This document shows positions 6,601 to 22,405 of a stretch of DNA of 32,000 nt, piece by piece; position 1 is the stretch's first letter, and every line of letters begins with the position of its first letter. This DNA comes from Acaryochloris marina S15 (GTDB lineage Bacteria; Cyanobacteriota; Cyanobacteriia; Thermosynechococcales; Thermosynechococcaceae), in contig NZ_CP064923.1 in NCBI RefSeq assembly GCF_018336915.1, positions 1,260,001-1,292,000 on the forward strand, read 5' to 3'. The position numbers were made by a program, and so were the translations under genes. Below the pieces are notes generated by a model. The model saw only the letters and a program-made list of their open reading frames with translations. It did not search any database and was not told the DNA's origin.

Positions 6601-6740
6601 GGATAAATCTCCATAGCAGCCTGTGAAGGGCTGCTGTAGCCAACACTTCCCACAGCTCCGAATAAAATCAGACCTGCTAATGTCTGCTGGCATTTAGAAG
6701 AGGCGAAGAAGTTTGGCTTGGAAAATCTAGGAAACATCAT
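3633..6740 (-). CDS. Secreted multidomain adhesin-like protein (gene G): DUF4347-like N-domain, GEVED domain, vWA domain with MIDAS, shared C-terminal DUF11-like module
   Basis: Signal peptide ...LAGLILFGAVGSVGYSSPSQA. DUF4347-like block DVIIVDAGV...AVHLISHGSAAQLHLG...IFLYGCNVAS (approx 6096-6512). Literal GEVEDYTL motif preceded by DFSDAPSDYG...AWVDFDGNGTFE (approx 4875-5387). vWA region with DxSxS MIDAS (FILDKSGSV, D at 4806-4808). Last 203 aa are paralogous to the C-terminus of gene F. Confidence 0.85.
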   Translation of the reverse strand: MMFPRFSKPNFFASSKCQQTLAGLILFGAVGSVGYSSPSQAAMEIYPQAKHDLVSAYSKSPTHLGQTSTRLLATPMTDVIIVDAGVTNPDALLKNLPSQAAVHFINSNADGLDQISDILSNYRNLKAVHLISHGSAAQLHLGNSRVNSTTLHQKAGQIQQWQTALSPTADIFLYGCNVASTTEGKAFVSNLSALSNADVAASNNPTGDATQGGDWTLEYQLGELEPQMVSQQLAQSNYAQLLQVTVLNFNDSTPTLEPATTNVYRFQNVATVGGQGIDALVTVSNINNATLTTLDDNNTFPDRFQPVIRHDGGANTISSIQFDFQLVQAGTNTPLAATNVFFSAQDVDGNGAANAVREFVEVVGADTVFIDDPTLLELVPPTGGGIRHRIQNSSNVQNGIGTDDRYEVYSYLGDTVSTFTIIAGNDVGAANCSGASCPRQNSWTFDISDIQVIDFSDAPSDYGVPSHAGTTATTLQLGAARDGDNGPIPTANALGDDNNGSPDDEDGVILAALNASDTSYTIQAANISATNDTGGPATLHAWVDFDGNGTFEADEYASQTVQSGNSSPDGALTWSGAGVSGLTGGTTTYARFRLTTDVNVNANTPGGFARNGEVEDYTLAIATPENPDIDNNFCQVSSDMMFILDKSGSVDLSERRAQRDAVMAMLNYLVDNNITSRVGIVRFDTSSATVINYTDVTAANLPTFESALNTNYVNIGGGFTNWEAGFQQAISLGVSPGSPDAVFFFADGNINTGGSPNDEALQFKQAGAHVYGIGIQNLDINDFLGITDGSNTTQFNAALDNANSADYVEVNTYDDLADDMTSLLRSLCPPATNNPNVLLVKRITRVNGLTANGGTNLNVYVDDPSYEYDDNTLNSPAPTPLDTEYWPTPSTFLLGATNGGQTRPGDEIEYTIYFLSTGTSTAMDVQFCDKVPSFQTFVPDAFNAVTPAPSGGIGANRGITVEYNGSLLSFTNDADGDTAQYYPPGSSLPAVCDNAPAQTEDNGAIVVNLGDLPQTTGVGTPATSYGAVRFRANVK
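3636..4244 (-). repeat. Copy 1 of the shared 203-aa C-terminal module (in gene G)
   Basis: NNPNVLLVKRITRVNG...SYGAVRFRANVK. My manual alignment gives 168/203 identical residues to 7544-8152. Similarity starts abruptly at NNPNVLL. Confidence 0.9.
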
Positions 6741-7478: not shown

Positions 7479-7540
7479 CAATTCCTGGTAAAGAGCTAGG
7501 CATTTGATGCGGCGTCGATTAGGTATGGAGTCCTAGTGAC

Positions 7541-9778
7541 CTACTTTACCTTGGCCCGGAATTTTAATGCGCCATAGGAAGTGGTAGGGGTTCCTGGAGC
7601 AGTCGATTCAGGTAGATTTCCTAAATTGATCACCACGGCACCATTGTCTTCTGCTTGGGCAGGGGCATTATCACAAGCAGCAGGGAGGGTTGAACCAGGT
7701 GGATAATACTGCGCTGTATCACCATCGGCATCATTGGTATAAGACAAGGGGGTGCCGTTATACTCCACTGCAATGCCTCGATTAGCCCCTACACCACCGC
7801 TGGGAGCTGGGGTTACCGAGTTATAAGCGTCTGGGATAAAAGTCTGAAAGCTGGGGACTTTATCGCATAACTGAACATCTACTGCGGCTTTATCACCTGT
7901 GGATAAGAAATAAATGGTGTACTCAATCTCATCTCCCGGTCGTGTTTCACCCCCATTGGTCGCACCGAGTAGATAGGTGCTGGGAGTTGGCCAATATTCT
8001 GTATCTAGAGGCGTCGGTTCAGGACTATCGAGGGTATTGTCATCGTACGGGTAGTTGGGATCATCAACATAGACATTGAGATTGGTACTGCCATTGGTGG
8101 TGAGGCCATTGACCCGGGTAATGCGCTTAACCAACAACACATTGGGGTTATTGGTGACAGGTGTATCGGTCGTTTCGATAACTAATGGCGTGGTACTACT
8201 ACTGCTGTTGCCGAAAACATAAGTATCGATATGCCGGAGGTTCCCAAATCCACCTGAGCTGAAATTACCCCAGGTGTGCTTACCCGCAGGGGTATTGGAG
8301 AGTGCACCGTTGGGTAACGTCGTGGTCGCACCAGCAGGATTCCCTAGACCCGTAATATCATCCCAATAGACCAGGGTATTACTGGTGTTCGTATTCGAAG
8401 ATGCTCGAAAAATCGTGAGGCCATTTTGTGCGCCACCTCCGCTGGTTTCAGCATCCGTTGCGACAAAGTGATATTCACCCAGTCTGGCTTGCACCTGAGC
8501 GCTGTAATTTCCGACTGGTAGGGTATTGCCGTTAGCATCTTTACCATCCCACTCAACCGATGTCTCCGCATTGGCTTGAGTTGTGCCTAGCAGGAGTACA
8601 TCCCCGGGACCATAGACGCCATCTGGGCCATTGCCATTGCCATCATCTGTGTCAATGATGATGCCATAGGTGCCATCAACGTTACTGGTAAATTTGAAGA
8701 AGCCCGTATCTTGTACACCTGGAGTTGCCGTTGGCGAGAACGTAAAATCAACCCCAGCACTGTCTTCGAATCGTAGATTGGAAATAACTGGGGATTGGGC
8801 GGGGGGTGGACCAATATTGAGGGTTGGATAGCTGAGATAGACCTTATATTGAGGAGTAGCAGAGTTCCCACTGATAGGAACACTCAAACCCGCAACATTG
8901 TTACCCGCAGCATTGGGGGAATCCACCCCCAGCTCATTGGCAATAATCTCGTAGGCAAAACCTGCAAAATTATTCAGGTCCAATTGCCAGACAAAGTTGG
9001 TATTGGGGAAGCCGCCGGGAACTGGAACGTAATAGTTCGTGTCTGCAGCAGAGGCTGAGTTAAATGAATTACCTCGAAACCCCCACACATAAGTCCAGAG
9101 ACGCCCCTGATTGAGTCTAGGATCTGGATCTGTTGCAGTGTCTGGGGTGAGGGTGATATCAAAACGGTTCAGCGTACCATTATTCCCATTTTGAGAGGTG
9201 TTGAACAAGCGGATCTCATACGTACCAGCCCCTTGTCCACCTGCGGCACTATCAGAGTCATACCGAACTAGCGGGTTGGTAATGACACCATTCATATCAC
9301 TAGTGCAAGAAATATTGTTACCAACAGAGCCAGTATCTGCGACTTTAGTGCCTAGAGGGGGAAGGGTCGTGAACTCATTAAAGGTTCCGGGAGGATGGTA
9401 ATAAATTTCTACTTCAACTGAATCAGCATTACCCCGTCCACAGGCAGAGACGTTAATGACTTCCCCAGCCTGAACGTCAACATACAATGGTCTATCCTTC
9501 TGGGTGATGCCTGAAGAAGAAGCACCACTATAGGTCGAATCATACTCTAGCAAGCCTTGAAATTGAGTAGGGACAGAGTTGGTTTCATCGCGAAGTTCAA
9601 GCTGATAGGAACCTTCTGCCAGAGCTTTAGAGGGTACCCACAACATTCCCAGGGTTGTCCCTGCCAGGGCTACTTTGGTGATCCAAGATGGGACCCGAAG
9701 GTACGTTCGATTCTTGTTTGATGTTGAAAAATTTTGATGAGAATTTAGTTTTCTCGCAATTGCATAAAGGTGGTTCAT
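7541..9778 (-). CDS. Secreted adhesin-like protein (gene F) with FlgD-Ig-like segment and shared C-terminal DUF11-like module
   Basis: ATG at 9778 (MNHLYAIARKL...); the track start at 9817 is a TTG. Long signal sequence ends ...VALAGTTLGMLWVPSKALA. Contains a VEWDGKDANGNTLPVGNYSAQVQA motif (FlgD Ig-like pattern). Last 203 aa are paralogous to gene G. Confidence 0.85.
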   Translation of the reverse strand: MNHLYAIARKLNSHQNFSTSNKNRTYLRVPSWITKVALAGTTLGMLWVPSKALAEGSYQLELRDETNSVPTQFQGLLEYDSTYSGASSSGITQKDRPLYVDVQAGEVINVSACGRGNADSVEVEIYYHPPGTFNEFTTLPPLGTKVADTGSVGNNISCTSDMNGVITNPLVRYDSDSAAGGQGAGTYEIRLFNTSQNGNNGTLNRFDITLTPDTATDPDPRLNQGRLWTYVWGFRGNSFNSASAADTNYYVPVPGGFPNTNFVWQLDLNNFAGFAYEIIANELGVDSPNAAGNNVAGLSVPISGNSATPQYKVYLSYPTLNIGPPPAQSPVISNLRFEDSAGVDFTFSPTATPGVQDTGFFKFTSNVDGTYGIIIDTDDGNGNGPDGVYGPGDVLLLGTTQANAETSVEWDGKDANGNTLPVGNYSAQVQARLGEYHFVATDAETSGGGAQNGLTIFRASSNTNTSNTLVYWDDITGLGNPAGATTTLPNGALSNTPAGKHTWGNFSSGGFGNLRHIDTYVFGNSSSSTTPLVIETTDTPVTNNPNVLLVKRITRVNGLTTNGSTNLNVYVDDPNYPYDDNTLDSPEPTPLDTEYWPTPSTYLLGATNGGETRPGDEIEYTIYFLSTGDKAAVDVQLCDKVPSFQTFIPDAYNSVTPAPSGGVGANRGIAVEYNGTPLSYTNDADGDTAQYYPPGSTLPAACDNAPAQAEDNGAVVINLGNLPESTAPGTPTTSYGALKFRAKVK
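7544..8152 (-). repeat. Copy 2 of the shared 203-aa C-terminal module (in gene F)
   Basis: NNPNVLLVKRITRVNG...SYGALKFRAKVK. Both Cys (FCDKVP/LCDKVP and AVCDNAP/AACDNAP) are conserved between copies. The DNA copies differ at many third-codon positions. Confidence 0.9.
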
Positions 9779-9919
9779 AATTCTAACAGAGGAAAATGGA
9801 GACGTTCTACCACCCAAATCGAGCCTTAACCAGAATTATTCACAGTTGATATAAGCATTCATGAGGAAAGTCCTAACAGCAGCCTGAAATAGGCTAGTGT
9901 AGGGCTCCACACAAATGGC

Positions 9920-9992: not shown

Positions 9993-11693
9993 CTACTTAA
10001 GGTCTATTACGACCGCATTGCGGGCCGGTTCAGACGTTCCATAGTCAGGGTGAATTGCGATCGCACTGAATCGATCACCTGCATTGGCATCCGTGAGAGT
10101 GATGGCAAACCGCCCCTCTTCATCGGATTTGACCATGGTCACTGGCTCATTGAGAGGACCTTGCTTACCCTCTTCCATGACCTTGTACAGCACAATTTCT
10201 GTCCCTGGATCGGCTTCCCCATCTAGGTTGACCGCCCCCTCCATTAAATAAAATTCGGAGCTGAGAAACTGAGGCGTATTAAGGCCTCGGTTGGCGGTAT
10301 CGCGCTTACGTTGGTCTGAATTGCGTAAGGGATTTGGACCATCCCCTACTTGGTAGTCTTGCACTCTAGTATTGGATCGAGACGCTAAGTCCACGCGGTT
10401 GATGGAGATGCGAGAGAAGCGGTCGAGAAAACGGTTTTCGCGAGCAATCAAATCGATGCTGAGGCCGTCAAGATTGGCAAATCGATTGTCGAGGATAAAG
10501 TTGCGCTGGCTCGTGGGATAGGAGGTGATTACAACACCCGGACCCGGTTGGTCTTGGATGGTGTTGTTGACGACATGGTGATTGTCACCCATCAGCAGGA
10601 TGGCGGCCCGACGGAATCGTTGGCCATTGTCGGCGATCAGATTTTTCTCAATCATGACCGACCCTTCGGGCTTGAAAAGGTAAACAGCGCTGCCCGCATT
10701 CTGTTGAATCTGGTTGGTATGGATTTTGGTGCCATCAATATCGCCTTCTAGGCGGATGGCATCGGGCATGCCGGCCAAGCCATTCTGTTCAATGATGTTG
10801 TTGGCAATCTCAGTTTGTTCGGCGCGGACGCTGGTAATCACGGCGCTACCGTCGTGATGGGCAATCTGGTTGTTGAGAATGCGCGTGCCAATGGCGTTGT
10901 AGATGGAGACCCCAAAGGCGGATCGAGAACCGGTAGGGGCTGTGCCTTGGGGCGTAATTCCTAAATAGCTATCCTCAATGAGAATTCCTTGGGGGGGAAG
11001 ATCCCGCTCGTCATCGTAGGGATAGGTGACTTGGGGGTTATCTTCTTTAAGACGTTTGGAAGGCAGAAGCCGATGGGCAATAAAAATATCTGCAGGGGGG
11101 GTTGTGGCAGTGGTTTGATGGATGGAGGTAAATCCATAGAGACTCAAGGCTCTGACATGGACCTTATCCGCTGCGAGGGTTAATCCCCGAAAGACTTCTG
11201 TATCCTCGGCTGGGGTCAGGGCAACTACAGGGGCAGGGGCACTGGCATCCCCCTCGGCGAGGGTATAGCCAGCTTGGCTAGTGCCATCAATTAATAGACC
11301 GGGGTTAGTGACGGTGGGCAGCAGGGCCTGCAGGCGAATCGTGGTGTTGTCCCTAGGTAAGTCAAAATCAATCCGGCTATGATCTGTGCTAGGAGTGATT
11401 TGAGCCCGTTCTGCTTCACTCAGGTCGCCTTTGTTAAGCACGCCGTTGGTAATTGCGATCGCTTCTCTTAAGGTAACCACCTCATCGGCCTTAATTTCGC
11501 CATCTAAAGGACTATTAACCGTGACTTGCACCGGAGCAGTAGTCGCTCTAACGGTCTGCGCATGGGCATTTTGGTAAGTACTGATTAGCCCTGCGATGGC
11601 CAGGAAAGAGGTTAAGGAAGCCCAGGCAATAGCCATTCCTGAAGATGGATGGGGAAGGCGGGGAGTTGATTGGAGCGTGCCGCGAGATTTCAT
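9993..11693 (-). CDS. Secreted right-handed parallel beta-helix repeat protein (gene E)
   Basis: ATG at 11693 (MKSRGTLQSTPRLPHPSSGMAIAWASLTSFLAIAGLISTYQNAHA). N-terminal LREAIAITNG...IDFDL...IRLQALLPTV...IDG block. It then has repeated I-x-N-N-x-I turns (ILNNQIAHHDGSAV, IANNIIEQNG, IHTNQIQQNAGSAV, IEKNLIADNG, VVNNTIQDQPGPGV, ILDNRFANLDG). The C-terminus is Ig-like (EIVLYKV...DEEGRFAITL). Confidence 0.8.
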   Translation of the reverse strand: MKSRGTLQSTPRLPHPSSGMAIAWASLTSFLAIAGLISTYQNAHAQTVRATTAPVQVTVNSPLDGEIKADEVVTLREAIAITNGVLNKGDLSEAERAQITPSTDHSRIDFDLPRDNTTIRLQALLPTVTNPGLLIDGTSQAGYTLAEGDASAPAPVVALTPAEDTEVFRGLTLAADKVHVRALSLYGFTSIHQTTATTPPADIFIAHRLLPSKRLKEDNPQVTYPYDDERDLPPQGILIEDSYLGITPQGTAPTGSRSAFGVSIYNAIGTRILNNQIAHHDGSAVITSVRAEQTEIANNIIEQNGLAGMPDAIRLEGDIDGTKIHTNQIQQNAGSAVYLFKPEGSVMIEKNLIADNGQRFRRAAILLMGDNHHVVNNTIQDQPGPGVVITSYPTSQRNFILDNRFANLDGLSIDLIARENRFLDRFSRISINRVDLASRSNTRVQDYQVGDGPNPLRNSDQRKRDTANRGLNTPQFLSSEFYLMEGAVNLDGEADPGTEIVLYKVMEEGKQGPLNEPVTMVKSDEEGRFAITLTDANAGDRFSAIAIHPDYGTSEPARNAVVIDLK

Positions 11694-11725
11694 TATTACC
11701 TCTTGGGGATACAAACTAGGTAGGG

Positions 11726-11763
11726 ATTTAATAGGTGTGATGTCATTTAATAGGTGTGATGTC
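11726..11763. repeat. Perfect tandem direct repeat, 2 x 19 bp (atttaataggtgtgatgtc)
   Basis: Units at 11726-11744 and 11745-11763 are identical. They lie between the gene D hairpin and the gene E start codon. They share the 13-nt core ttaataggtgtga with both arms of the 3575-3621 hairpin. Confidence 0.9.
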
Positions 11764-11771
11764 GGAGATAG

Positions 11772-11809
11772 CACTAAACCTGTCGTTCAGAAGAATGACA
11801 GGTTTAGTG
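11772..11809 (-). terminator. 13-bp perfect stem hairpin immediately after gene D
   Basis: cactaaacctgtc (11772-11784) pairs with gacaggtttagtg (11797-11809), with a 12-nt loop. It begins 7 nt after the gene D stop codon (11816-11818). No clear U-tract follows. Confidence 0.5.
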
Positions 11810-11815
11810 GTTCAG

Positions 11816-14800
11816 CTATCGGACGACTTCAAAACTGGGTTGAGTTTGGGACGCTGCTGGCTCCACGACAACCTCGGGTTCAGACTTGGTATCCACGAGT
11901 TCAGCCTTAGGCTTGGAGACTTTAACTTCAGGCTTAGACTTAACTTCAGGCTTGGAAACGTTCGCTTCAGAGGGAGAAGCAGGGTTTGAAGCTTCTTGGA
12001 CCTGGCCGTTATCTGGTGCAGACTCTTGCTGCTGCGGGGGCGCTACCTTATTTTCACCGAAGCCAAAATCATCAAAGAGATTGTTGTCTAGCTTCAGGGT
12101 GACGCCAAAGTAAGGACCGCTGGCAGAGCGAGAGTTACCAAAGTCACGGTCTCCCACATCTCCAAAAGCGTATCCAGCCGCCAATCGTAAGTTGGGATTG
12201 AGGTAGTAACCGACTTCCGCAGAAGCGCCCACCTCATTAAACCCAGTACTATTTTGGCGAATCCAGCGAACTTCACCGCCAATATCCCAACGGTAGCTAA
12301 TTCGATAGGTGGCCCGCATTTGAGCCAAGGAAATGCTACTAGTGCCGATTAAATCCTGAGCCAGGTAAGACTTGCTATGTCGCCAGCCAAACTTGCCGTA
12401 GAGTTCCCAGCGCCAGTTGGGGGCATAGATAGCCTCTGCTGAGATCAGATGATCCGTGGAGCCGGTGCCGTTGGCAAATAGTAAGGTATCAGGAATCGTG
12501 GAGGGATTCTCGCGATACTCATAGCGGAGTAAGGCGTTGAACTTATCACTATCGGGATTCCGATAGGCCACACCCACTTTCAAGTCTCGGGTTGTACCCA
12601 ACCCAGCCAGGGTTTGGTTCGAAGCACTAGCTTGTTGGTAGCTGGCCAAAACCGTGAGGTCACGGGTGGCTCGACCCAAGGCATTGGCTGTGATGATGGT
12701 ATTGCTGCCCTGAGCGGTATCACTGTACTCAAAACGAGCATTGGCTTGGAAATCAGGGTTGTCTGTATAGGCTAAACCGAGGCTAAAGCTATCGCCGGGG
12801 GTTAAGCCCAAGGCGGAAGCACCAGACCCTAAAGCAAAGGGTTGGGCAAACTGTTGACTGGCAGCGGTTTGTTGCAATGCAGTGTTAAATACATGCTCGT
12901 AGGAGAAATCAGCCCGGAGACCGGGAGCGATGGTCAAGCCCTGCTCAACCCCGAAGTAACCGGCCATGCCCAAGTCACCCATCATGGAGAATTGGCCCCG
13001 AAGGGTGGTATCCGTGGAGAAGGTATGTTGTCCGGCGATATCTAGACTAGTAATAAAGTCATCATCAAACTGGCCCCCGGTCAAGTAGGTGTTATTCAGA
13101 CCAATGGTGACCCCAGGATAAACCTCATATTCCAGACCCACCGAGGTGCGGTTGGGATAAATGGGATCAATTTCCGAAGAGAAGGTGGTCTCGTTCAAGG
13201 CCCGCAAGGTCAGTTTCCGCGTGATCGGTATCCGGGCGGTAGAGCGAATTTGGTCAGTGGTGATGTCCTGGCCCGTGAGACGATCCGTGCGATCGCGTCG
13301 GACGTAGTCCAGACTTACTTCAGAATCGCCGATCCGCTGGAGAACCCCTGCCGTAATCGTGGTCAGAGAGTTATTAACGGGATTACCAGGAGTGGCGGAG
13401 AAACCGGGTTGAATTAAATCTTCAAACAGATCAAGCGGACGAGGCGCAACGCCAAAATTATCCTCATGGTCATAACTGGCTCGCAGCTTAGTATTCCGAG
13501 AGACCGCTGCTAGGACTTCTGCCCCGTAGCGCGTTTGCCCAGGAACAAAGCTAGTGGTGGCATTGTTGGAGAAGCCCACATCAGCCCGCTTAAAATAAGC
13601 TCGACCAGTAATGTCATCTGTCGGCTTCGCTTCAATTTCAACCCGGTAAGCATTGCCGCTCACCGGAGTGGCGAAATCAAGGGAATTATTAGAACGAGCA
13701 TATTCCGCAACTAGGTAGTTATCCTTGCCGAAGGAAACCAACGCATCAGCACCATAGAGTTCAAAGTCTTGGCTACCGCGATTTTCACGGAAATAGGTGG
13801 CCCCCACCCAGCTTTCCTGATCTAAGTTCCGAGAGAACGTATACTGGGCGCGACCACCGAAGGTATCGGTATCCGCATTTTCGCCTTCAAATTGGTAAGT
13901 GGTGACGATTCGGCGAACCAGCACATAGCCATCATCATCGACATCCGTGCGGAGAATCGGGCGTTGGAATTTCAACGTACCGCGATCATAATCTACTTCA
14001 TAGTCAGCCCCGCGACTTAACCGCTCTCGCTTCAATACAGTACCGGGGCGATTGAGTTCTTCCAGCTCTAGGTAAACTTGCTCACTCCCTGGAATCAGCA
14101 ACCGTCGAGATAAGAAATAAAATCCGCTAGTCCCATCGGGAGCAATGGTATCTCGCTGGAAGCCTTCAGTGTTATTGCCGTACAGTGCCGTGAGCTGCAG
14201 ATTACCGATGTTGTAATTGCCCTTAAAGCCATGTAAAGAGCGGCTGGTGGCGGTAAATAACTGAGACGAACGAGAAAATTCTTCCGTATTGTAATCACCC
14301 CACATGAAGTAATCACTGCCGGCACCGGGGACCGGTGAGGTCCGTTCTAACCGTACAAATAAGTTATCGGTGGACGGAGCCGTCACATCCGTGATTGAGT
14401 TATCCCCGTAGGTGGCGTAATTGTTGTAATCACATTCTGTCCCAGAGGCTTTGAACAGGGTCGTTTCGCCGTTGCAGTCCTCATTTAGGGGGCGAGCGCT
14501 ATTAAAGGCACCGGTCAATAACCAATCGCCAATGGAGGTAATACCAAAGGCTTGGGCACGAGCATCGACTTCATACCCATTGTCACCGTCTACAGGTAGG
14601 AACTCGCGGAAGCTGTCGTAAAAGTTGGTGCCCCGACGACCGATCCGGACATCTACAACCCCGGTTAACAGGGCCGAAGGCCGAATGGGAGTGGAAAACT
14701 GAAACTGATGGAACCCTTCCATATTGGCAGCGGTGGCCCGAACTCGCACCAACCCTGCACTAATGCTCGACTGTAAGTCAGCGGTGAATTTACCATCAAT

Positions 14801-15904
14801 GGCTTCCACCTGGAACCCAGGAACATCGGGTTTGTTATCGGTACCAACGAATTTTCCTGATGTGGCTTCTAGGGTGACAATCGCATCCCAGTTCGACTGG
14901 TTACCATTCGAGTCCAGCAAGTAACCCAAGACCTGAGCCGTGGACCGACCATCAGCAGGAACTTTGTTTTGAGCTGTGCGCACCTTAATCTGGGTAGGTT
15001 CACCAGGAACTTCTACCTGGATGGTGGCACTGGGGGTCTCTTGACCGACTTCGTTCACCGTAATGGTATTGACGCCTGCGTCTAGGATGACCCCATACCA
15101 GGTTTGCCGAGTTTTCTGAGTAGCAGAATTGGTCTCAGTTCGACCCACTTGAGCGCTATCAACAGTCTTACCATTGACCCGTAGCTCAACTTTTTGCTCC
15201 GTGCCAAATTCAATAATGACGGTTGCAGAAGGTTTATCAACAACGCTGCCTGGTCCAGGGGTCAGAATTGAAATGCCTGAAGCTGGCGTAGTCGCTGGAG
15301 CTTGAGCTGTTGTAGGTGCTTCAGAAGAAGCAGAAGCAGGTGTCTCAGGCACATCCGAAACTTGGGGCGTGTCCTTAAGGGGTGATGTTTGGGGCTGAGG
15401 TGTGGCAACCGCAGGTTGTGTTTTAGCGGCTGCCTCTTCAGCGATGGCTTCAGTTGTCACTGCTTCTTGTGGGATGGCTTCAGTGGCAACTGCATCTTCA
15501 GCGGGTTGATCACCAACGAGGAGTGTCTCTTGCGCCAGGCTTTCAGGGGCAGCTTCTGCAGCAGGAGTTATTTCCGCTTTAGGGGCAACTGGCTGGGGTT
15601 CCCTAGCGGTTGTTTGGGGTTCACTAACCGTCTGAGGTTCGCCAGCAATGCCAGAATCAGCCACGACCTCTTCGATAATAGGCTCTGGGGTAAGAGCTTC
15701 GTTAATGGACGGCTTTTCGACACTTAAGGTTGGTTCAGCTTGGCTAACGGATGGCTTTTCTGCACTCAGGGTTGATTCGTCTGCAGGCTTAACTTCTTCA
15801 ATGGCTTGGGCATTGGCCAGAGTAGGGGTTAAGACAACACTGGTGCCTGCGACAATTCCGAGAAGTCCAGTTTGCATCCACTGGGAAGAACGTTGATGTT
15901 TCAT
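11816..15904 (-). CDS. Giant predicted outer-membrane beta-barrel protein (gene D) with N-terminal Pro/Glu/Ala-rich spacer, two Ig-like domains and a C-terminal repeat tail
   Basis: Signal peptide MKHQRSSQWMQTGLLGIVAGTSVVLTPTLANA. Residues ~33-205 are P/E/A/T-rich low complexity. Residues ~211-300 are Ig-like. Residues ~301-403 are Big_1-like (VPADGRSTAQVLGYLLDSNGN...VTLEATSGKF...GLVRVRATA). Residues ~405-1282 show alternating amphipathic strand/turn patterns typical of OM barrels, ending ...YFGVTLKLDNNLFDDFGF. An ~80-aa tail follows with SKPEVK repeats. Confidence 0.8.
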   Translation of the reverse strand: MKHQRSSQWMQTGLLGIVAGTSVVLTPTLANAQAIEEVKPADESTLSAEKPSVSQAEPTLSVEKPSINEALTPEPIIEEVVADSGIAGEPQTVSEPQTTAREPQPVAPKAEITPAAEAAPESLAQETLLVGDQPAEDAVATEAIPQEAVTTEAIAEEAAAKTQPAVATPQPQTSPLKDTPQVSDVPETPASASSEAPTTAQAPATTPASGISILTPGPGSVVDKPSATVIIEFGTEQKVELRVNGKTVDSAQVGRTETNSATQKTRQTWYGVILDAGVNTITVNEVGQETPSATIQVEVPGEPTQIKVRTAQNKVPADGRSTAQVLGYLLDSNGNQSNWDAIVTLEATSGKFVGTDNKPDVPGFQVEAIDGKFTADLQSSISAGLVRVRATAANMEGFHQFQFSTPIRPSALLTGVVDVRIGRRGTNFYDSFREFLPVDGDNGYEVDARAQAFGITSIGDWLLTGAFNSARPLNEDCNGETTLFKASGTECDYNNYATYGDNSITDVTAPSTDNLFVRLERTSPVPGAGSDYFMWGDYNTEEFSRSSQLFTATSRSLHGFKGNYNIGNLQLTALYGNNTEGFQRDTIAPDGTSGFYFLSRRLLIPGSEQVYLELEELNRPGTVLKRERLSRGADYEVDYDRGTLKFQRPILRTDVDDDGYVLVRRIVTTYQFEGENADTDTFGGRAQYTFSRNLDQESWVGATYFRENRGSQDFELYGADALVSFGKDNYLVAEYARSNNSLDFATPVSGNAYRVEIEAKPTDDITGRAYFKRADVGFSNNATTSFVPGQTRYGAEVLAAVSRNTKLRASYDHEDNFGVAPRPLDLFEDLIQPGFSATPGNPVNNSLTTITAGVLQRIGDSEVSLDYVRRDRTDRLTGQDITTDQIRSTARIPITRKLTLRALNETTFSSEIDPIYPNRTSVGLEYEVYPGVTIGLNNTYLTGGQFDDDFITSLDIAGQHTFSTDTTLRGQFSMMGDLGMAGYFGVEQGLTIAPGLRADFSYEHVFNTALQQTAASQQFAQPFALGSGASALGLTPGDSFSLGLAYTDNPDFQANARFEYSDTAQGSNTIITANALGRATRDLTVLASYQQASASNQTLAGLGTTRDLKVGVAYRNPDSDKFNALLRYEYRENPSTIPDTLLFANGTGSTDHLISAEAIYAPNWRWELYGKFGWRHSKSYLAQDLIGTSSISLAQMRATYRISYRWDIGGEVRWIRQNSTGFNEVGASAEVGYYLNPNLRLAAGYAFGDVGDRDFGNSRSASGPYFGVTLKLDNNLFDDFGFGENKVAPPQQQESAPDNGQVQEASNPASPSEANVSKPEVKSKPEVKVSKPKAELVDTKSEPEVVVEPAASQTQPSFEVVR

Positions 15905-17502
15905 TATTTGGACTCCTCCTGGAAGGTAGGTGTGACACCGAAGTTCATGCGTACACTGCTACCGGGAGAGAGTTTGACCAAACGCGAAGGGCTATTGCTT
16001 TCTATAAATTGGAGATTGGGTGCCAAGGTGTAACCGGGCAATGTGGTTAGGTCCAGAGCGCCGGTGCGAGGTCCAGGCAACACACATCTGACATGGAAGA
16101 GGCCATTCTCATCGGTTGTAATGCGATTGCCGTCATCCATCCAGACCACAGCATTGGGAACGCCAGGTTCTCCCGTTTGCTGTTCGCCATCAAAGTTTTT
16201 GTCAACAAAGACTCGACCTAAAATATTGCCACAGTCTGTAAGAATGCCTGGGTTCACCCGTACGCGGTGAACTACGGGGCCATCCCGGACATCTAGGTTG
16301 TTATCCACTCGGAATCCTAGAACCGAGGCGGAATTTCTGCCATCGCCTCTAATCGCATCTGGGGTGAGTTGGGCCGCATAGACGACATTGATCACGCCTT
16401 CTAAGGGGATGACTGCGTCGGTTCTAAAGGTTAGATTTTGGCCGTTTTGCTCAACCGTAATGGGAACTTCTGTTCCGTCTAGCGCCCCCCTGACTGAGTT
16501 GGGGAGTAACTTAAATCCGGCGGGTAAAATATCCTGCACCGAGATGGTGTCTAGCTCTCCATCCGACAGGTTGCGCAGGGTCAGACGGTAAATCACTGAA
16601 TCTCCGGGGGCAGCATTGGCCCGGTCCCCAGATTTACTGATTTGAATCTGATTGGTCTGGCATAGGGCGGAAGAGAAGTTTAGGGCCAATAACTGCAACG
16701 AGATTCGCTCAGCATCGCCAATGGTGGTTACCGTATCTTCAAAGTTGATGGCTCCTTCTGCGGCGATGGGCAAACCATCGAGGGAAGTAGCTGTATAGGT
16801 AACTAAGTTACGGTTGCCCGTCGGTATGATAGATGTAATCGTCAGACGAACTCGGCGCTGATTGTAGATGGACGCGTCCGGTGGTGTGACGACTAAGATG
16901 TAAGATTGACCAACAGAGAGCTGTCCCCGGCTAGGATCTAATAGATAGCTATAGGTCCCTTGGTCTGCATTGCTAAGGGGGAACGGATTTAAGTTAGACC
17001 CATTGGGGGTGATTCCCAGGGGAATACCATTATTGGGTAGATCAGGAACTTCTGTTCGAGTCAGTGAAACTAAACTACCCAGTTCCGATTGGGTTGGATC
17101 GGTGGGATCGATATTGTAGAGACCGACCGTAAATCCGGTATAGTCTGCCAGAGGTTCTCCGCCACAACCTAAGACTTGTCCACGGGGGTCGAGTAACGAA
17201 GGGTCCAACACGTTTGAAATCGGATTGGTGAAGCTTTCGATCAGCGTGTCAGTATTGGGATTGGTGTAGGAATATGAAGCGGTGTTATTGAGCAGATCTC
17301 TGGAATCTTCTTCCTCCGTTGTTTGGGCCCAAGATATTGCAGAACTCGAGAATAAACTGCTCAAAACCAAGGTTGAGGTCAGAGCACGAGCCCACCTGGG
17401 GAAGGATTGATTGGGGAATGGCAAGTGAGGTGGTCTCACGGGAGATATCTCCTCTGGAACAATCGGATAGAATCGCTGACTCTTTACAAGGTTGAAAAAC
17501 AC
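15904..17502 (-). CDS. Secreted three-module protein (gene C): prealbumin/CnaB-like, DUF11-like and SdrD-B-like domains
   Basis: Contains DPRGQVLGCGGEPLADYTGFTVGLYN, QISKSGDRANAAPGDSVIYRLTLRNLSDGELDTISVQDILPAGF (DUF11 pattern) and GRVFVDKNFDGEQQTGEPGVPNAVVWMDDGNRITTDENGLFHV (SdrD B-like pattern). The signal-like segment is RWARALTSTLVLSSLFSSSAISWA. The start is uncertain: GTG at 17502, no ATG upstream of the signal peptide. The stop overlaps the gene D start (TAATG). Confidence 0.75.
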   Translation of the reverse strand: MFFNLVKSQRFYPIVPEEISPVRPPHLPFPNQSFPRWARALTSTLVLSSLFSSSAISWAQTTEEEDSRDLLNNTASYSYTNPNTDTLIESFTNPISNVLDPSLLDPRGQVLGCGGEPLADYTGFTVGLYNIDPTDPTQSELGSLVSLTRTEVPDLPNNGIPLGITPNGSNLNPFPLSNADQGTYSYLLDPSRGQLSVGQSYILVVTPPDASIYNQRRVRLTITSIIPTGNRNLVTYTATSLDGLPIAAEGAINFEDTVTTIGDAERISLQLLALNFSSALCQTNQIQISKSGDRANAAPGDSVIYRLTLRNLSDGELDTISVQDILPAGFKLLPNSVRGALDGTEVPITVEQNGQNLTFRTDAVIPLEGVINVVYAAQLTPDAIRGDGRNSASVLGFRVDNNLDVRDGPVVHRVRVNPGILTDCGNILGRVFVDKNFDGEQQTGEPGVPNAVVWMDDGNRITTDENGLFHVRCVLPGPRTGALDLTTLPGYTLAPNLQFIESNSPSRLVKLSPGSSVRMNFGVTPTFQEESK

Positions 17503-17680: not shown

Positions 17681-18241
17681 TTACTGAACTGCTACTTCAT
17701 AGACAGCTTGTACAGAAGCCATGGGCTTGAGGGATTCACTATAATCCCACTGAACATGGGTGTAAGCTTCAGCAGGAGCGGGCTCCATTTTGACTGTGCC
17801 GTCGGGCTGAGTTACTTCAACCATGGGCTTTTCAGAATAGCTTTGGCCACCGTCAATGCTATAGGTGAGCTTGGCACCGTTGGCGCGAGCAGAGTCCAAA
17901 ACAAAAGCAGTTTTGTTCGGAATAGGCTGGTTGATGGTTAGCTCAGCAGCAGACTTGTCTCCAGCATTCTCACTCAGCAAGGTATAGCGGAGGACATCAC
18001 CAGGACGGACAGTGACATTGCCTTCTACAGCATCCCAGGAGATTTCTTGCTTACCTTCAGCATCAGTCGTAACGATTTGCTTCTCTGCCGAGAGCACCAT
18101 CTTTACCTTGGGCTGGAGGATTTGCTGGACGAGAGCTTCGCCTGCTTTCTGCAAATTGGCAAGAACAGGAGTGCTGCTAGCGAAAGGAATGGCGACGGCT
18201 ACTGCTAAGACACCGAGACCGATTGATAGACGACGTTTCAT
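17681..18241 (-). CDS. Small secreted single-domain DUF11-like protein (gene B)
   Basis: Signal peptide MKRRLSIGLGVLAVAVAIPFASSTPVLA. One module follows with RPGDVLRYTLLSENAG...LTINQPIPNKTAFV...KLTYSIDGG...VYEVAVQ. Confidence 0.8.
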   Translation of the reverse strand: MKRRLSIGLGVLAVAVAIPFASSTPVLANLQKAGEALVQQILQPKVKMVLSAEKQIVTTDAEGKQEISWDAVEGNVTVRPGDVLRYTLLSENAGDKSAAELTINQPIPNKTAFVLDSARANGAKLTYSIDGGQSYSEKPMVEVTQPDGTVKMEPAPAEAYTHVQWDYSESLKPMASVQAVYEVAVQ

Positions 18242-18346: not shown

Positions 18347-21001
18347 TTACTGGATGCGACGGCGGAACTGGAATTGACCGGTTTGACCGGGGTCAACTTG
18401 ACCAACGGGGTTCTCATACTTATCCACTTTGGTTCCAGCAATGGGATCTGCAGTGGTTAAAGGAGCACCATCAGTGCTGTTGGTGAAATATTCCACTGTG
18501 CCTTGGTCAGCACTGGTGTTTTGCTCGTGGTCAGTAAAGGACGCCCAGTTGTTGTTGACGTTCTGCTCACCAGTACCCGCGTTTACAACAGGATTTCCAT
18601 CTTCAACAATCTCGAAGTTAAAGGCAGTTAGAGTGGTATTACCACTACCGACAACATCTGTCGAGAGGTTTTCATAGGTAATCCGGTACTCAATTTGGTA
18701 GTCCGGCTGCAGAGCAGTAGCAGGAGTATTATTCAAATTGTCCAGTACTGTTTGGTCCGAAGTCCAAGCTTGGATCAGTACACCATTCTCATCTAGAATC
18801 TGTACTTCCTTAGTCAACTTCATGAAGCCTGTATAGAGGCGATCAAGAGTTATGTTCGTAGTTGATTCAGGAGTACCGGTAAAGTTATACCCAGGAGAGC
18901 TAGTAGGATTATCATCTGCAAAGGCAAGGATGGGAACAGGAATCTCATCATTCGGGAGAACATCATCTGCAGTACCCGCTGCACTACCATCAGGTAAATC
19001 AACGACTGTCGTGTAATTTAAGGTGTCACCTGCATTTAAGTCACCGACATTAACATGTTTGAAGTTACCTGCAGTCTCAGGAGTTCCATCAGTACTGCTA
19101 CCGGTCAGGTCAAAGGTTGTCCCGTTATAAGTATATGTAGCAGACTGAACAACACCAGCATCGTCAGTCGCAGTAATCGTGACAGTTGTGCCAGTAGGGA
19201 TATCGCTGTTAGCGCCATATTGACCTGTTAATGTACTGTCATCCGTAGACTCTGCCTGGGTGGGAGAAATGGGTTGCAAGGTTACGTTCGAAATAAATCC
19301 AGAGCTAGCCGGATTTTGAATCGTGTTGTTAAAGGTTTCAGGTGCAGGGTCAAAGATATCGGTTGGACCCACCCCAGCAGGAACATCTGTGGTCTGATTG
19401 GTGAAATCATCGTTATCGTCCGTGGGACCGACAGCGCCAGGGACAGTATTTGGACCATTGAGGAGGTCGTCAGTACCCGCAGCGTCACCGATATTGACAA
19501 CGTTGTCTTCACCATCGGGGCCAGTACCCGTGTTGTTATTGCCGGTATCAGTTCCTTGGGTTACAGGGTCTGCAACACCAGTATCTCCAGTATTGGCGGT
19601 TGGGTCATAATTAGTACCCGTTGGATCCGGTGGGGTGCCATCATCGTTGAAGTTATTGGGATTGCTGTCACCAGACTCATCGTAAACAACTTCATCGTCA
19701 GGATCGCCGACGGTTTCACCAAATACCTGGGCAATGTTAGCAACCTGTCCACCAGTAGTCGGTAGACCATTAGTCACTACGGTGAACTGGAAAGGTCCCT
19801 GTACTGGATCTGTCCGAAGTACCTGTGGGTTTGTGTCACTTAAAGCTGCATCGTTATGGATAAAACCAATTCGAGTGACATCAGTTAATCCACCTGCCGG
19901 TAGGGCAGTGGTCCATAGGGCATTAGTTGCTGTGGTGGTCAGTGCTGTTTCGGTATAAACAACGGTCCAGCCAGCGGGGGCAGTCCCTGCCGCAGATAAT
20001 TCAGTACCAGCTGGAATTGCATCAGAGACTAAGATCTGAGGAGCGATTGTCCCATTGACACTAATATCTGTTCCTTCTAGATCAGCCGGAGTGAAAGCAG
20101 CATTAGGAGACGTATTTTCTACCGTTAGCCCTAAGTCATAGGTAATCAAATCGTCATTAGCAGCAGCCGTTGCACCAGGAGCGAGATTAGATGCAATTTT
20201 GGTGACAGTTGCTAAGGCTAAGGGACGGACGGAGCTAGCAAAAGGAATGCTGTTCTCGGCACTTGCTTCACGCTCGCCGTTGACGGGAGCACCATTGCCA
20301 GGATTCGCATCGATGGTACGAATGTCTCCTGTATTGGTATTTCCAGCTGCTGGATCTCCATCGCCTGTATCGGGTTGGTTTTGAGTGCTGGGGCTGTTGT
20401 TGTCAGGACCAGTACTACCCAAGGTGACGCCGACATCTGCACCTGCAGAGGTGCCAGCGGCAGGGGTACCTGTGACTTTCACTTTTAGAACAGTGTCAGG
20501 AGCCAGAGCGGCTAAGTTAATACCGGCTGCATCTAATAAGTTACCACCAGCGGCTGGAACTGTTGCGATGACTGCGCCTGTACCATCAATAATCTGAACT
20601 AGTGATGGAGTGAAGTTCTCAGTACCAATATTGTCAATACCTGGAATAAAAAGATCTGTCGCTGCGTTACCCACGTTAGTAACGTCGAAAACGAATTCTA
20701 AGGTATCACCAGCTTCAACAGCACCGCCATCTAAGTCAGTGAAACCGGCAGGAACTGCGGTCACACCTGCAACTTCTGCAACGGTGACGGTAACCGTATT
20801 AGATGTTGCATCAATGGTGGGTCCACCATTGGTTTCTGAATAGGTTGCAGTCGCGGTGTTACTGATTTGTTGACCAGCGGCTGTTCCGGCGGCGAAGGCT
20901 GGAAGAAGAGGTTGGACTAGGCCACCTGCCAATAAGGCTGCAATGGTAAGAGGGCCAAGCTTTCGTGGTCGTCTAGGGGACTTTGGTGTATCTTGAGTCA
21001 T
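18347..21001 (-). CDS. Secreted multi-module DUF11-repeat protein with acidic Asp/Gly/Thr/Asn/Pro-rich insert (gene A; candidate major surface subunit)
   Basis: ATG at 21001 (MTQDTPKSPRRPRKLGPLTIAALLAGGLVQPLLPAFA); an upstream in-frame ATG at 21085 is the track start. Modules begin ISNTATATYSE...TVTVAEVAGV and ATVTKIAS...ITYDLGLTVENTS...FQFTVVTNG. The C-terminal module reads MKLTKEV...PDYQIEYRITYENLS...TVEYF...GQFQFRRRIQ. The mature protein has no Cys. Confidence 0.8.
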   Translation of the reverse strand: MTQDTPKSPRRPRKLGPLTIAALLAGGLVQPLLPAFAAGTAAGQQISNTATATYSETNGGPTIDATSNTVTVTVAEVAGVTAVPAGFTDLDGGAVEAGDTLEFVFDVTNVGNAATDLFIPGIDNIGTENFTPSLVQIIDGTGAVIATVPAAGGNLLDAAGINLAALAPDTVLKVKVTGTPAAGTSAGADVGVTLGSTGPDNNSPSTQNQPDTGDGDPAAGNTNTGDIRTIDANPGNGAPVNGEREASAENSIPFASSVRPLALATVTKIASNLAPGATAAANDDLITYDLGLTVENTSPNAAFTPADLEGTDISVNGTIAPQILVSDAIPAGTELSAAGTAPAGWTVVYTETALTTTATNALWTTALPAGGLTDVTRIGFIHNDAALSDTNPQVLRTDPVQGPFQFTVVTNGLPTTGGQVANIAQVFGETVGDPDDEVVYDESGDSNPNNFNDDGTPPDPTGTNYDPTANTGDTGVADPVTQGTDTGNNNTGTGPDGEDNVVNIGDAAGTDDLLNGPNTVPGAVGPTDDNDDFTNQTTDVPAGVGPTDIFDPAPETFNNTIQNPASSGFISNVTLQPISPTQAESTDDSTLTGQYGANSDIPTGTTVTITATDDAGVVQSATYTYNGTTFDLTGSSTDGTPETAGNFKHVNVGDLNAGDTLNYTTVVDLPDGSAAGTADDVLPNDEIPVPILAFADDNPTSSPGYNFTGTPESTTNITLDRLYTGFMKLTKEVQILDENGVLIQAWTSDQTVLDNLNNTPATALQPDYQIEYRITYENLSTDVVGSGNTTLTAFNFEIVEDGNPVVNAGTGEQNVNNNWASFTDHEQNTSADQGTVEYFTNSTDGAPLTTADPIAGTKVDKYENPVGQVDPGQTGQFQFRRRIQ

Positions 21002-21085
21002 ATGATGTCGTCTTTGAGTTCTTGGTAATGGACAATAGGAAGATAGACATCTTCCGGCAGAGATGAGTTGTAACTGACCCGCCAT

Positions 21086-22405
21086 TGGCTGGGTTGGTTT
21101 CCTGTGGTTTTGAGCTGGACCCTCAAAACTTAGGGGTTATGGCTCAGTCTCTGCCTTCATCTCTAAGTGAGATTTTTAGAATTAAGAGCTTAAGCCAGTG
21201 AGCTGAAAAGTGGCGACTAATCCTTTCTTTGAAAGCCTGTTTTGGATTGAAAGCAACGCCTTACAGAATTATCAGTTCACCCAGGGGTTATTAACTTATT
21301 TATCAGTCTAGATTCAGTATGCCCTTTTTGGAATCCGGGATGACACCTAATTCTGGATAGTGAAGAGGTCGAATTGATTGTTGGTATTTGTTGAATGTTT
21401 GAAAATTATTCTACCTCAGTAAAAAAGCTTTTATAGAGAACGTTGGCATAAGTTGTCTATGCTAGTAAAAATCATAAAAGCTTTTCTAGTAAAGGATTAA
21501 TTCTCTTGTCGTGGTTGATGTATTAATGAATATCTAAGCTTTTATATATTTTTAAGTCAACGGATTTTGTGCTTTAATTTATAGCTACTTAAATAAGCCT
21601 ATTTTTTGAGGTCAGTATATATACAGAGAAGATTCAATAACGGATAAAAGATGGAAAGAAGTATTTGAATCCGTAGGTATAAAAAATAGAATCTCAGTGG
21701 TAATACTGATGGCTATGATGTGTGCATCCATAAATAAATCTCTATAGCTACCTTAGGGAGAGGATTGTAGCTTTTGTCACAGCTCAGGGCAGTGAATACC
21801 TTTTTGGTCCATAGATTGGGGTGCTAGTGGTTCTAGCTGTTCAGAAGAAGTGTGATCGGTCGGATCTTGCTATGGCTCAGGTCTGAAGTGGGTAGCTAGC
21901 AGGATTGTATGTAAGGTTTATGGATGGCTTGGGGAACTTTTGGGTAGAGTTGCCATCCCCAGCTTCTGAGCTATAACGATCGGCTACCTAACGATACGAT
22001 TACTCGGTGCTAACCTGTCAGTCCTCATCTTTCATCTTGCTTACTGTTGCAGATCTTCTGACAGAACTGGCTTTTTGCCTAAAGCAATGTTGGCTAAGTT
22101 AGCCGAAAAGATTATTTTGGTTTCGCGATGGTTCTCTAAACGATAGCTCCGAGCTATGGTTTGCGAGACATGAGTAACCGTAACCTTGACGGAGTCACCA
22201 TCAAAAGCTAGAGAAGTGGCGAATCAATGCAATCCTGCGGAGATCTAGAGACCATGCCTAGCTCTCTTTGAAGGTAAAAGAGGTATGAACAATCGCAATA
22301 TATGACTCTGCTCAGGCAGATTAGGTGTCGCTCCTTATTATTCAGGAGAAAACGTTGATTGTCGCCCTATTCCGCTATCTAGTTTCTACTGAAAGGCTTT
22401 TGGGT
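21086..22405. promoter_or_regulatory. 1.3-kb stretch with no ORF of 60 aa or more, upstream of gene A, with very AT-rich core
   Basis: No six-frame ORF of 60 aa or more is listed here. My hand count over 21421-21720 gives 87/300 G+C (about 29%). There are two perfect AAAAGCTTTT palindromes (21423-21432, 21476-21485) and a partial third (AAGCTTTT, 21536-21543). Confidence 0.5.

Follow-up and report, generated by a model that had tools for sequence, protein, structure and literature searches.

The window studied here, a stretch of 32,000 nucleotides from the cyanobacterium Acaryochloris marina S15 (contig NZ_CP064923.1, positions 1,260,001 to 1,292,000 of the forward strand), contains a cluster of seven genes for putatively secreted proteins, designated A to G, of which gene D encodes a protein of 1362 amino acids with a giant predicted β-barrel of the outer membrane (OM). 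We propose, with a probability of roughly one half, that D is the OM component of a surface-display system for fibres or adhesins built from isopeptide-type domains (CLIPPER/DUF11, DUF7925 and DUF7933), in which it would act both as conduit and as anchor. The wider idea that the D family forms the OM core of a distinct, so far unrecognised export and anchoring pathway of diderm bacteria, which would let isopeptide-stabilised, folded immunoglobulin (Ig)-like domains pass and retain the fibre via a docked CLIPPER/SdrD_B module, is put forward more tentatively. The main evidence is the gene context, which lies outside gene D itself, the subject of the original prediction for this DNA, in which D had been described as a barrel protein of atypical architecture.

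Gene context in cyanobacteria

Judging from homologs with 47-90% identity in well over 100 cyanobacteria, D is a real gene. It lies directly downstream of gene C, and the TAA stop codon of C overlaps the ATG start codon of D as TAATG (15902-15906), with a GGAGG Shine-Dalgarno sequence located within the last codons of C. As far as can be read from the sequence, this arrangement is typical of translational coupling. The order A-B-C-D is kept in cyanobacteria: in a set of 81 loci, each with the barrel gene, A was present in 74, B in 73 and C in 77, and gaps in A, B or C among the inspected loci coincided with the end of the contig near the barrel. Downstream of the barrel, a protein with the 206-aa C-terminal module of F and G was found in about 61-62 of the 81 loci. 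Gene E, the next gene after D in the window, follows the barrel in 15 of the 81 loci only and was ruled out as a core component; its homolog in Calothrix carries an OmpA domain.

All seven proteins of the cluster, D included, start with Sec-like N-termini, the signal peptides having been judged by eye from the sequence. A conserved amphipathic strand forms the very end of proteins A and B and of those of the F/G type (..F.F[RQ]R.[IV]N in A, ..Y.V.V[KR] in B and ..SYGF[VI]RF[RQ]..V[KN] in F/G). C differs from these in having a short additional peptide at its end; it corresponds to the module that is elsewhere fused to the barrel. F and G share 83% amino-acid identity over their last 206 codons, and their N-terminal parts are unrelated. 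Such an arrangement resembles a head-swapping cassette, in which variable adhesive heads would be combined with a constant C-terminal module, and G is a candidate adhesive head. At the DNA level, a 300-nt repeat (3612-3911 versus 7520-7819, 72% identity) extends about 20 nt beyond the stop codons of F and G.

DUF11, renamed CLIPPER, as well as DUF7925 and DUF7933 are CnaA-like domains for which intramolecular isopeptide bonds have been predicted or demonstrated; pilins and fibrillar adhesins are the proteins in which they typically occur (PMC12617251).

Fused and split relatives in other phyla

In other phyla, the module of two Ig-like domains and a barrel (Ig-Ig-barrel) occurs in fused and in split forms. 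In the fused forms it makes up the C-terminal ~1,050 residues of proteins of 1,600-2,900 aa, the N-terminal parts of which are strings of DUF11/CLIPPER, CLIPPER_2, DUF7619, DUF7927, cadherin/Big_9, CarboxypepD_reg and SdrD_B domains. DUF11 was matched in all 24 long fused relatives analyzed and SdrD_B in 21 of them. Seven of the 24 also matched Chlam_OMP6, the family of the cysteine-rich outer-membrane protein OmcB of Chlamydia; these matches probably reflect the common DUF11-type repeats and no specific relationship. The consensus of the fused forms right before the first Ig-like domain matches the C-terminal SdrD_B module of protein C, and thus the N-terminal spacer of D sits at the position of the linker between the two modules.

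In the split forms, the genes of adhesins of 4,339 (Mesorhizobium), 2,605 (Sulfuriferula) and 1,818 aa (Aestuariivirga) overlap the start of the barrel gene by 4 nt (ATGA). Each of these adhesins contains CLIPPER repeats, accompanied variously by GEVED, SpaA_2/4, DUF7927, DUF7933, SdrD_B or CLIPPER_2 domains, and those from Mesorhizobium and Sulfuriferula carry near their C-terminus a module that is 33% identical to residues ~290-524 of C (E ~1e-21). Metagenomic contexts comprised one with small CLIPPER genes and a barrel (L083) and one with the full cyanobacterial order (L088). In every inspected context that was fused or had upstream sequence, the barrel was paired with a CLIPPER-type protein.

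These relatives also account for a feature that had been taken as an anomaly, namely the order of Ig-like domains and barrel in D, which is reversed with respect to intimin and invasin. Since the fused relatives carry their adhesin repeats N-terminal to Ig-Ig-barrel, they show the passenger-then-barrel order of classical autotransporters, which explains the 'reversed' order.

Fold, strand number and topology of the barrel

The structure of D was predicted with AlphaFold2 (AF2) in two ways. A model of residues 205-1300, comprising the Ig-like domains and the barrel, was based on an alignment of 104 sequences and reached a mean predicted local distance difference test score (pLDDT) of 80.3 and a predicted template modelling score (pTM) of 0.74; a model of the barrel only (residues 399-1300), based on 30 sequences, reached 71.3 and 0.61, respectively. 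Both models contain seven long strands, then several short strands clustered in the insert (residues ~577-660) and then 32 long strands. According to an amphipathicity analysis, one hydrophobic face alternates with one polar face in most of the long strands, and the strands of the insert, short in the models, are mostly non-amphipathic.

When the barrel-only model was compared with the PDB by Foldseek, every match was an OM barrel. SlpA of Deinococcus (30 strands) came first, followed by MtrB (26), TonB-dependent receptors (22), FimD (24), SprA (36) and LptD (26), with E-values between 1e-10 and 1e-5 and template modelling (TM) scores that were all at or below 0.29. Because all these matches are OM barrels, the model firmly places D in this fold class, in which it has no close structural relative. 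The original prediction had likewise seen an OM barrel, far larger than those of ushers and intimins, in the strand pattern of D and had left the nearest fold to structure prediction; the matches headed by SlpA and the predicted 39-40 strands bear out both points. In searches by sequence, D alone retrieved from the PDB a de novo designed barrel and nothing else (E = 0.006), and the family profile matched the C-terminal Ig domains of glycoside hydrolases of family 2 (GH2) only, being aligned to the Ig pair in 7cwd (E = 1.2e-4). Neither in Pfam nor in NCBIfam did any family exceed its threshold with D; DUF2490, GH2_C5, Invasin_D3 and Big_1 appeared below it, and the insert and the tail, scanned separately against Pfam, gave nothing at E ≤ 10.

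The number of strands is 39 if only the long ones are counted and becomes 40 if a short strand at residues 582-587, reached from strand 7 by a connection of five residues, is included as strand 8. In OM barrels, the extracellular loops are usually long and the periplasmic turns short. With 40 strands, the connections of at least 10 residues (20, 46, 16, 15, 17, 10, 29, 12, 13 and 12) all fall on one side of the barrel and those on the opposite side measure 2-7 residues, the insert excepted, whereas a count of 39 would put the first three of the long loops on the wrong side. Relatives of D carry further domains at the ends of the module. An OmpA domain precedes the barrel (residues ~100-240) in all four OmpA-matching relatives of the betaproteobacterial type and follows it in relatives P0213 and P0092, and in P0215 and P0175 the Ig-barrel module is immediately preceded by three SLH domains. 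Because OmpA or SLH domains are thus found at either end of the barrel, an even number of strands is to be expected. Together with the DSSP strings and the parity of loop lengths this points to ~40 rather than 39 strands. By the same reasoning, both ends of the barrel module most likely face the periplasm, so that the spacer, the Ig-like domains and the tail of D would be periplasmic as well.

In this topology the insert would be located on the periplasmic side, in the turn that connects strands 8 and 9, which makes it a candidate plug or docking domain. According to the standard formula for barrel geometry, a circular barrel of 40 strands would measure ~7-8 nm from backbone to backbone, and with such a lumen the passage of folded Ig-like adhesin domains would be possible.

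SprA with 36 strands is the largest single-chain barrel for which a structure has been solved (preprint 10.64898/2026.03.07.710327). Computational work has predicted single barrels with 38 and with 40 strands (families 003 and 002; Solan et al. 2021, PMC8346858) and, in Deinococcus radiodurans, three 38-strand barrels (PMC9388160). By size alone, D with its predicted 39-40 strands would belong to the same class as this 38/40-strand superfamily and the Deinococcus barrels and would exceed SprA; no function, adhesin coupling or domain context is assigned to these barrels in the two papers. The size class of the D barrel may therefore have been predicted before (PMC8346858). Of the earlier suggestion that D represents a new class of translocon or anchor, the role remains the best explanation also in our analysis, but the class of barrel is possibly not new.

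Solute channels, ushers and envelope tethers as alternatives

Many homologs of D are labelled 'TonB-dependent receptor' by NCBI, and TonB-dependent receptors appear in the Foldseek list of D with E ~1e-7. Moreover, Porin_4 was weakly matched by two homologs and DUF2490 appeared below threshold in several. D might accordingly be a channel for solutes or nutrients, i.e. a TonB-dependent receptor or a very large porin. However, its TM scores to TonB-dependent receptors do not exceed 0.27, its barrel has ~40 instead of 22 strands, and neither Plug (PF07715) nor TonB_dep_Rec (PF00593) was matched at E ≤ 0.01, nor any NCBIfam model. Genes for TonB/ExbBD or substrate-binding proteins do not travel with D, the conserved neighbours of which are of the adhesin type. 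An assignment of D as TonB-dependent receptor was rejected, as there is neither a plug domain nor a 22-strand barrel domain and the N-terminus consists of a low-complexity spacer and two Ig-like domains. We regard a channel function of either kind as highly improbable.

The layout of D, with β-sandwich domains at the presumably periplasmic N-terminus and an insert on an early, presumably periplasmic turn, is reminiscent of the ushers FimD and PapC, in which a large barrel is combined with β-sandwich domains in the periplasm and with a small domain on an early periplasmic turn, and whose operons also encode Ig-fold subunits. The plug of ushers is located on the β6-β7 turn. As an usher-like platform, D would polymerise a pilus by strand exchange, with B as its major subunit and A, F and G at the tip or as minor subunits; the Ig-like domains would recruit the subunits and the insert would plug the barrel. 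B is indeed a small one-domain protein, the larger proteins likewise end on a conserved terminal strand, and FimD is among the Foldseek matches. The VWA head of G also has counterparts in the tip pilins of sortase pili and in Mfa5 (PMC12617251). On the other hand, ushers have 24 strands compared to ~40 in D, which lacks the C-terminal usher domains. Its TM score to FimD is at most 0.29, and an alignment of the family profile with E. coli FimD by hhalign gave a probability of 0.07%, i.e. no homology in sequence. As D gave no Pfam match to Usher (PF00577), PapC_N or PapC_C either, its classification as an usher was rejected. A gene for a PapD-like or other candidate chaperone is missing from the operon, and no PapD-like chaperone was found among the neighbours in the window or in the contexts from Calothrix, Mesorhizobium, Sulfuriferula and Aestuariivirga. 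Furthermore, polymerisation is not required in other phyla, where the barrel is either fused to its partner or accompanied by a single giant polypeptide. On balance, an usher-like mechanism appears unlikely.

The domains at the barrel ends of some relatives raise the question of whether D is an envelope strut, in which the barrel would merely provide an anchor to peptidoglycan and the Ig-like, CLIPPER and SdrD_B domains would form a periplasmic scaffold, as an alternative to OmpM/SlpA or OmpA. The OmpA domains at either end would suit such a role, as would the three SLH domains that P0215 and P0175 carry in front of the barrel, and the spacer and tail of D, which are long, disordered and rich in Pro, could span the periplasm. 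SlpA/OmpM proteins, which connect the OM to peptidoglycan in diderm Terrabacteria, have a large barrel preceded by periplasmic modules as D does, with SLH before the barrel also in a few relatives of D, and the 30-strand SlpA (8ae1) is its best Foldseek match. The TM score is ~0.2, however, and D contains neither a coiled coil nor an SLH domain, the latter being present in only two relatives among those examined. Nor does D carry any other peptidoglycan-binding domain; P0092 was the sole carrier among the cyanobacterial homologs scanned directly. Unlike SlpA/OmpM, D is strictly coupled to adhesin genes, and ~40 strands are more than an anchor needs. The partner adhesins, which are 1,800-4,300 aa long and bear GEVED heads as well as dozens of stalk domains, would not plausibly reside in the periplasm, the heads of F and G (VWA, GEVED) are of the adhesive type, and imaging has shown strings of DUF11 domains as filaments outside the cell (PMC13319060). 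We consider a purely structural tether an improbable explanation for D.

D within its family

The original prediction had listed, in this order, a signal peptide, a long spacer, two Ig-like domains, a strand region of about 880 residues and a tail of 80 residues, and all of these parts are present in D according to its sequence and the AF2 models. The spacer (172 aa; 19% Ala, 15% Glu, 14% Pro and 11% Thr) is of low complexity and contains, exactly as had been quoted, the imperfect repeats TLSAEKPSVSQAEP/TLSVEKPSINEALTP at 15686-15772 and ATEAIPQEAV/TTEAIAEEAA at 15428-15487. Part of these repeats is encoded by a 42-nt tandem array with two copies (15695-15778), as detected by Tandem Repeats Finder (TRF). 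The second Ig-like domain, which had been called Big_1-like, is a β-sandwich in the models and does match Big_1, but with 18.7-22 bits this match is below the cut-off of 34.9; Invasin_D3 was also matched below threshold, and Glyco_hydro2_C5 reached 31.8 bits with a cut-off of 32. The two 18-nt units encoding SKPEVK in the tail exist as well (11939-11956 and 11921-11938), in a register shifted by 3 nt from the one given before, and are part of a tandem array of period 18 with 2.5 copies (11909-11956; TRF). The end of the barrel has to be revised. It had been placed at FDDFGF (residues 1277-1282, DNA 12059-12076, with 80 residues beyond), whereas both AF2 models end the barrel wall with the strand GPYFGVTLKL (1263-1272), FDDFGF following just after it in a segment of low confidence.

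A HMMER search of 1.84 billion cluster representatives with the family profile yielded 3,513 matches at E ≤ 0.001 and 1,410 at E ≤ 1e-30, the latter set being the safer one because the profile took in the Ig-like domains and the former may hold Ig-only matches. In a scan of species-representative genomes, at least 593 of the 600 pattern-matching stretches listed were confirmed as relatives of D; the best 80 of these relatives were all cyanobacterial (Nostocales, Leptolyngbyales, Nodosilinea, Thermosynechococcaceae and Acaryochloris). Named members were also found in Thermodesulfobacteriota, Deltaproteobacteria, Syntrophaceae and Lentisphaerae, among alphaproteobacteria (Mesorhizobium, Nitratireductor, Chelativorans and Aestuariivirga) and among betaproteobacteria (Gallionella, Sulfuriferula and Nitrosomonadales), the taxonomic breadth being based on metagenome-derived proteins with sparse names. 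The protein names of the non-cyanobacterial members are all generic. In addition to the many cases of 'TonB-dependent receptor', 'OmpA family protein' and 'Ig-like domain-containing protein' also occur among the NCBI names of homologs (P0005, P0009, P0012, P0016, P0305, P0311 and others).

The family is defined by Ig-Ig-barrel with the insert motif, either fused to a DUF11/CLIPPER + SdrD_B module or located directly downstream of one, and D fits this definition. In an alignment of 103 homologs, the insert is the most conserved part of the protein, with 48% of its columns conserved to at least 90% compared to 16-34% in segments of the barrel. Its motif, G.SG.Y.L....G.E.....R.R......R......DY.(I/V)DY..G...F, is kept from cyanobacteria to Thermodesulfobacteriota, the most distant relatives included. 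The region in front of the Ig-like domains measures 0-476 residues in the same homologs (median 115), and a tail of at least 20 residues follows the barrel in 90 of the 103. After the last strand, the motif LF(D/K)GFG..APPQQQES is conserved in homologs and the remainder of the tail is variable. Among the closest Acaryochloris relatives the tail varies between 50 and 102 residues, with one SKPEVK-like unit compared to two in D.

On the basis of these comparisons, the spacer, the Ig order and the tail of D are ordinary traits of a large uncharacterised family, and the description of its architecture as atypical could not be maintained. Likewise, the notion that D fits none of the known templates holds in so far as no curated threshold was reached and no relationship to FimD was detected, but its features are standard in a family of 1,410 representatives. 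The tail had also been viewed as a breach of the rule that OM barrels end at an aromatic β-signal. This view does not apply to the family, since proteobacterial members do end on a terminal aromatic residue (..GKF, ..AKY) and some relatives carry OmpA after the barrel. Because of these OmpA domains, the tail of D is best read as a periplasmic extension that is positionally equivalent to them.

Comparison with other secretion systems

The gene logic of the D family resembles that of type V secretion. In autotransporters, as in fused relatives of D, the passenger is N-terminal and the barrel C-terminal, and in two-partner secretion, as in the split forms, passenger and barrel are encoded in adjacent, translationally coupled genes and no dedicated energy source is encoded. 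The type V barrel, however, has 12 or 16 strands instead of ~40 and is associated with POTRA rather than Ig-like domains. No Pfam match to Autotransporter (PF03797), POTRA or ShlB-type families was obtained with D, and no homology was detected. A further difference is that the passengers of the D family consist of isopeptide-type Ig-like domains, which would be expected to fold in the periplasm.

SprA, the translocon of the type IX secretion system (T9SS), is like D a very large single-chain barrel and is thought to pass folded proteins. Its cargo carries a conserved C-terminal domain, as does the proposed cargo of D. In contrast to SprA, D has no match to the Pfam family SprA_N, its TM scores to SprA are only 0.09-0.19, and Por_secre_tail is absent from D and its neighbours. 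Other T9SS genes are not found nearby, and the D family occurs in phyla without T9SS. Intimin and invasin share with D an Ig-like domain of the Big_1/Invasin_D3 type that adjoins the barrel, but differ in the reversed order and in their 12 strands, and D shows no match to IAT_beta and a Big_1 match below threshold only. Overall, D resembles type V and two-partner systems in its gene logic, ushers in its domain layout and SprA in its size, without the defining features of each.

A proposed model for export and anchoring

In the reading we favour, D as conduit and anchor of a surface-display system, the isopeptide-type Ig-like domains of the adhesins would fold in the periplasm, where a type V barrel of 12-16 strands would be too narrow for them. 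The lumen of a ~40-strand barrel would be wide enough to let the folded domains out. The proximal CLIPPER/SdrD_B module, i.e. C in the window, would stay behind at the periplasmic mouth as a stopper and in this way anchor the fibre in the barrel, being covalently joined to it in the fused forms and docked on the first or second Ig-like domain or on the insert in the split forms. In cyanobacteria the fibre would be split among several secreted proteins, with A, B, F and G as further fibre parts or cargo, and variable heads (VWA, GEVED) would be mounted on a C-terminal module that they have in common. The spacer of D, rich in Pro, Glu and Ala, may be left over from the linker between the two modules of the fused relatives.

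Several points weigh against this proposal. The SLH and OmpA domains of relatives fit a purely structural tether equally well. If the region before the barrel is periplasmic, the adhesin repeats of fused forms would have to thread back through the lumen, as is assumed here. Proteins A, B, F and G are linked to the barrel by synteny and common C-terminal motifs only, and the operon contains no gene for a chaperone, an energy source or a polymerising enzyme. The count of ~40 strands, which derives from DSSP strings and loop-length parity in predicted structures, and the possible Ig-only matches in the larger HMMER set also belong here.

In full-text literature searches, we found no functional study of the D barrel family or of the cyanobacterial operon, and its coupling to CLIPPER adhesins was not found described. 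An apparent 'DUF11' match in a review on Brucella turned out to be DUF1134, and a paper on Synechococcus PCC 11901 had used the signal peptide of a DUF11 protein and contained nothing further on the subject.

Further features of the window

The coordinates of the features are given in Table 1.

Table 1. Genes of the cluster, parts of protein D and an RNA element, with positions counted from the first nucleotide of the window.
Feature	Positions	Strand	Description	Evidence
Gene A	18347..21085	-	912-aa secreted DUF7925 protein; CnaA-like isopeptide-domain family	Pfam, E = 1e-62
Gene B	17681..18241	-	186-aa secreted protein with one CLIPPER-type domain	TIGR01451, 30 bits (cut-off 24)
Gene C	15904..17502	-	Secreted DUF11/CLIPPER + SdrD_B protein	Pfam, NCBIfam
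Gene D	11816..15904	-	1362 aa, ATG start; giant predicted OM barrel protein	Open reading frame, homologs, AF2, Foldseek
D, putative signal peptide (residues 1-33)	15806..15904	-	..TPTLANA/QA; hydrophobic core LLGIVAGTSVVL, then A-x-A	Sequence inspection
D, spacer (34-205)	15290..15805	-	Pro/Glu/Ala/Thr-rich, disordered	Composition, TRF, 42-nt tandem repeat
D, Ig-like domain 1 (206-300)	15005..15289	-	Predicted β-sandwich	AF2, pLDDT ~85-90
D, Ig-like domain 2 (301-398)	14711..15004	-	Predicted β-sandwich; Big_1/Invasin_D3/GH2_C5-like, all below threshold	AF2
D, predicted β-barrel (399-1272)	12089..14710	-	39 long strands, 40 with short strand 582-587	DSSP of two AF2 models
D, insert domain (577-660)	13925..14176	-	GFQRD..DGTSGFYFLSRR..GADYEVDYDRGTL; early in barrel	Conservation, AF2
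D, post-barrel motif (1273-1295)	12020..12088	-	..NNLFDDFGFGENKVAPPQQQES	Kept across cyanobacterial homologs
D, variable C-terminal tail (1296-1362)	11819..12019	-	Low complexity, Val/Glu/Pro/Ser/Lys-rich; SKPEVK x2 at 11921-11956
RNA hairpin directly after the D stop codon	11773..11808	-	Stem 11808-11797 / 11784-11773	Free energy (dG) -23.1 kcal/mol, z = -8.7
Gene E	9993..11693	-	Secreted right-handed β-helix (NosD-like) protein; optional member	Pfam
Gene F	7541..9817	-	Secreted; FlgD_ig-like region + 206-aa C-terminal CLIPPER-type module
Gene G	3633..6740	-	Secreted DUF4347 + GEVED + VWA protein with the 206-aa C-terminal module of F

The intergenic region between D and E (11694-11815) contains the very stable hairpin, which is not followed by a T-run, and after it a perfect tandem direct repeat of 19 nt (GACATCACACCTATTAAAT, two copies at 11763-11726). 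This region may act in attenuation or mRNA stability or as a binding site for a regulator. For gene E, the open reading frame program placed the start at a GTG (11774), probably too far upstream; translation more likely begins with the ATG at 11693, which is preceded by AGAGG and yields MKSRG..., followed by a stretch resembling a signal peptide. A comparison of protein B with the sequences in the PDB gave nothing significant.

Upstream of A, a non-coding gap of ~1.3 kb (21086-22405) is probably the promoter and regulatory region of the operon; the most AT-rich kilobase of the window is found here (GC 0.387 at 21001-22000). In a scan of the operon for promoters and terminators, the counts were at chance level. 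Beyond the gap lies a gene for a Ser/Thr protein kinase (22406-24310), followed by genes for an NlpC/P60 protein, adenylate kinase (Adk), SecY and the ribosomal proteins L15 and S5 (24406-31193). The other flank (1180-3498) contains genes for a rhodanese, a LuxR/GAF regulator and a pentapeptide-repeat protein. These neighbours on both sides are those of an ordinary chromosomal region. A plasmid origin of the cluster was rejected, as it has no near match in a plasmid collection and the window holds the SecY, Adk and ribosomal-protein genes.

Implications

A known anchor is present in only about half of the fibrillar adhesins of a published training set, and further anchor domains have been suspected (PMC9210967). 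Likewise, a survey of isopeptide domains describes Gram-negative CLIPPER adhesins without an export route (PMC12617251). If our proposal is correct, the D family would be the missing anchor for many of the Gram-negative fibrillar adhesins that have no known one, and, being fused to or translationally coupled with adhesins in at least four phyla, it is a concrete candidate for the missing component. The label 'TonB-dependent receptor', under which many members of the family are listed at NCBI, fails both defining tests, i.e. the plug domain and the 22-strand barrel. A barrel of 40 strands would extend the known size range and raises the question of its assembly by the β-barrel assembly machinery (BAM).

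For cyanobacteria, A, B, C and F/G would together constitute a new surface fibre of several subunits. Hundreds of cyanobacterial genomes share the conserved operon, among them those of genetically tractable relatives of Nostoc and Anabaena, and with its VWA- and GEVED-headed proteins it is a candidate for a surface fibre that may serve in adhesion, biofilm formation or symbiosis.

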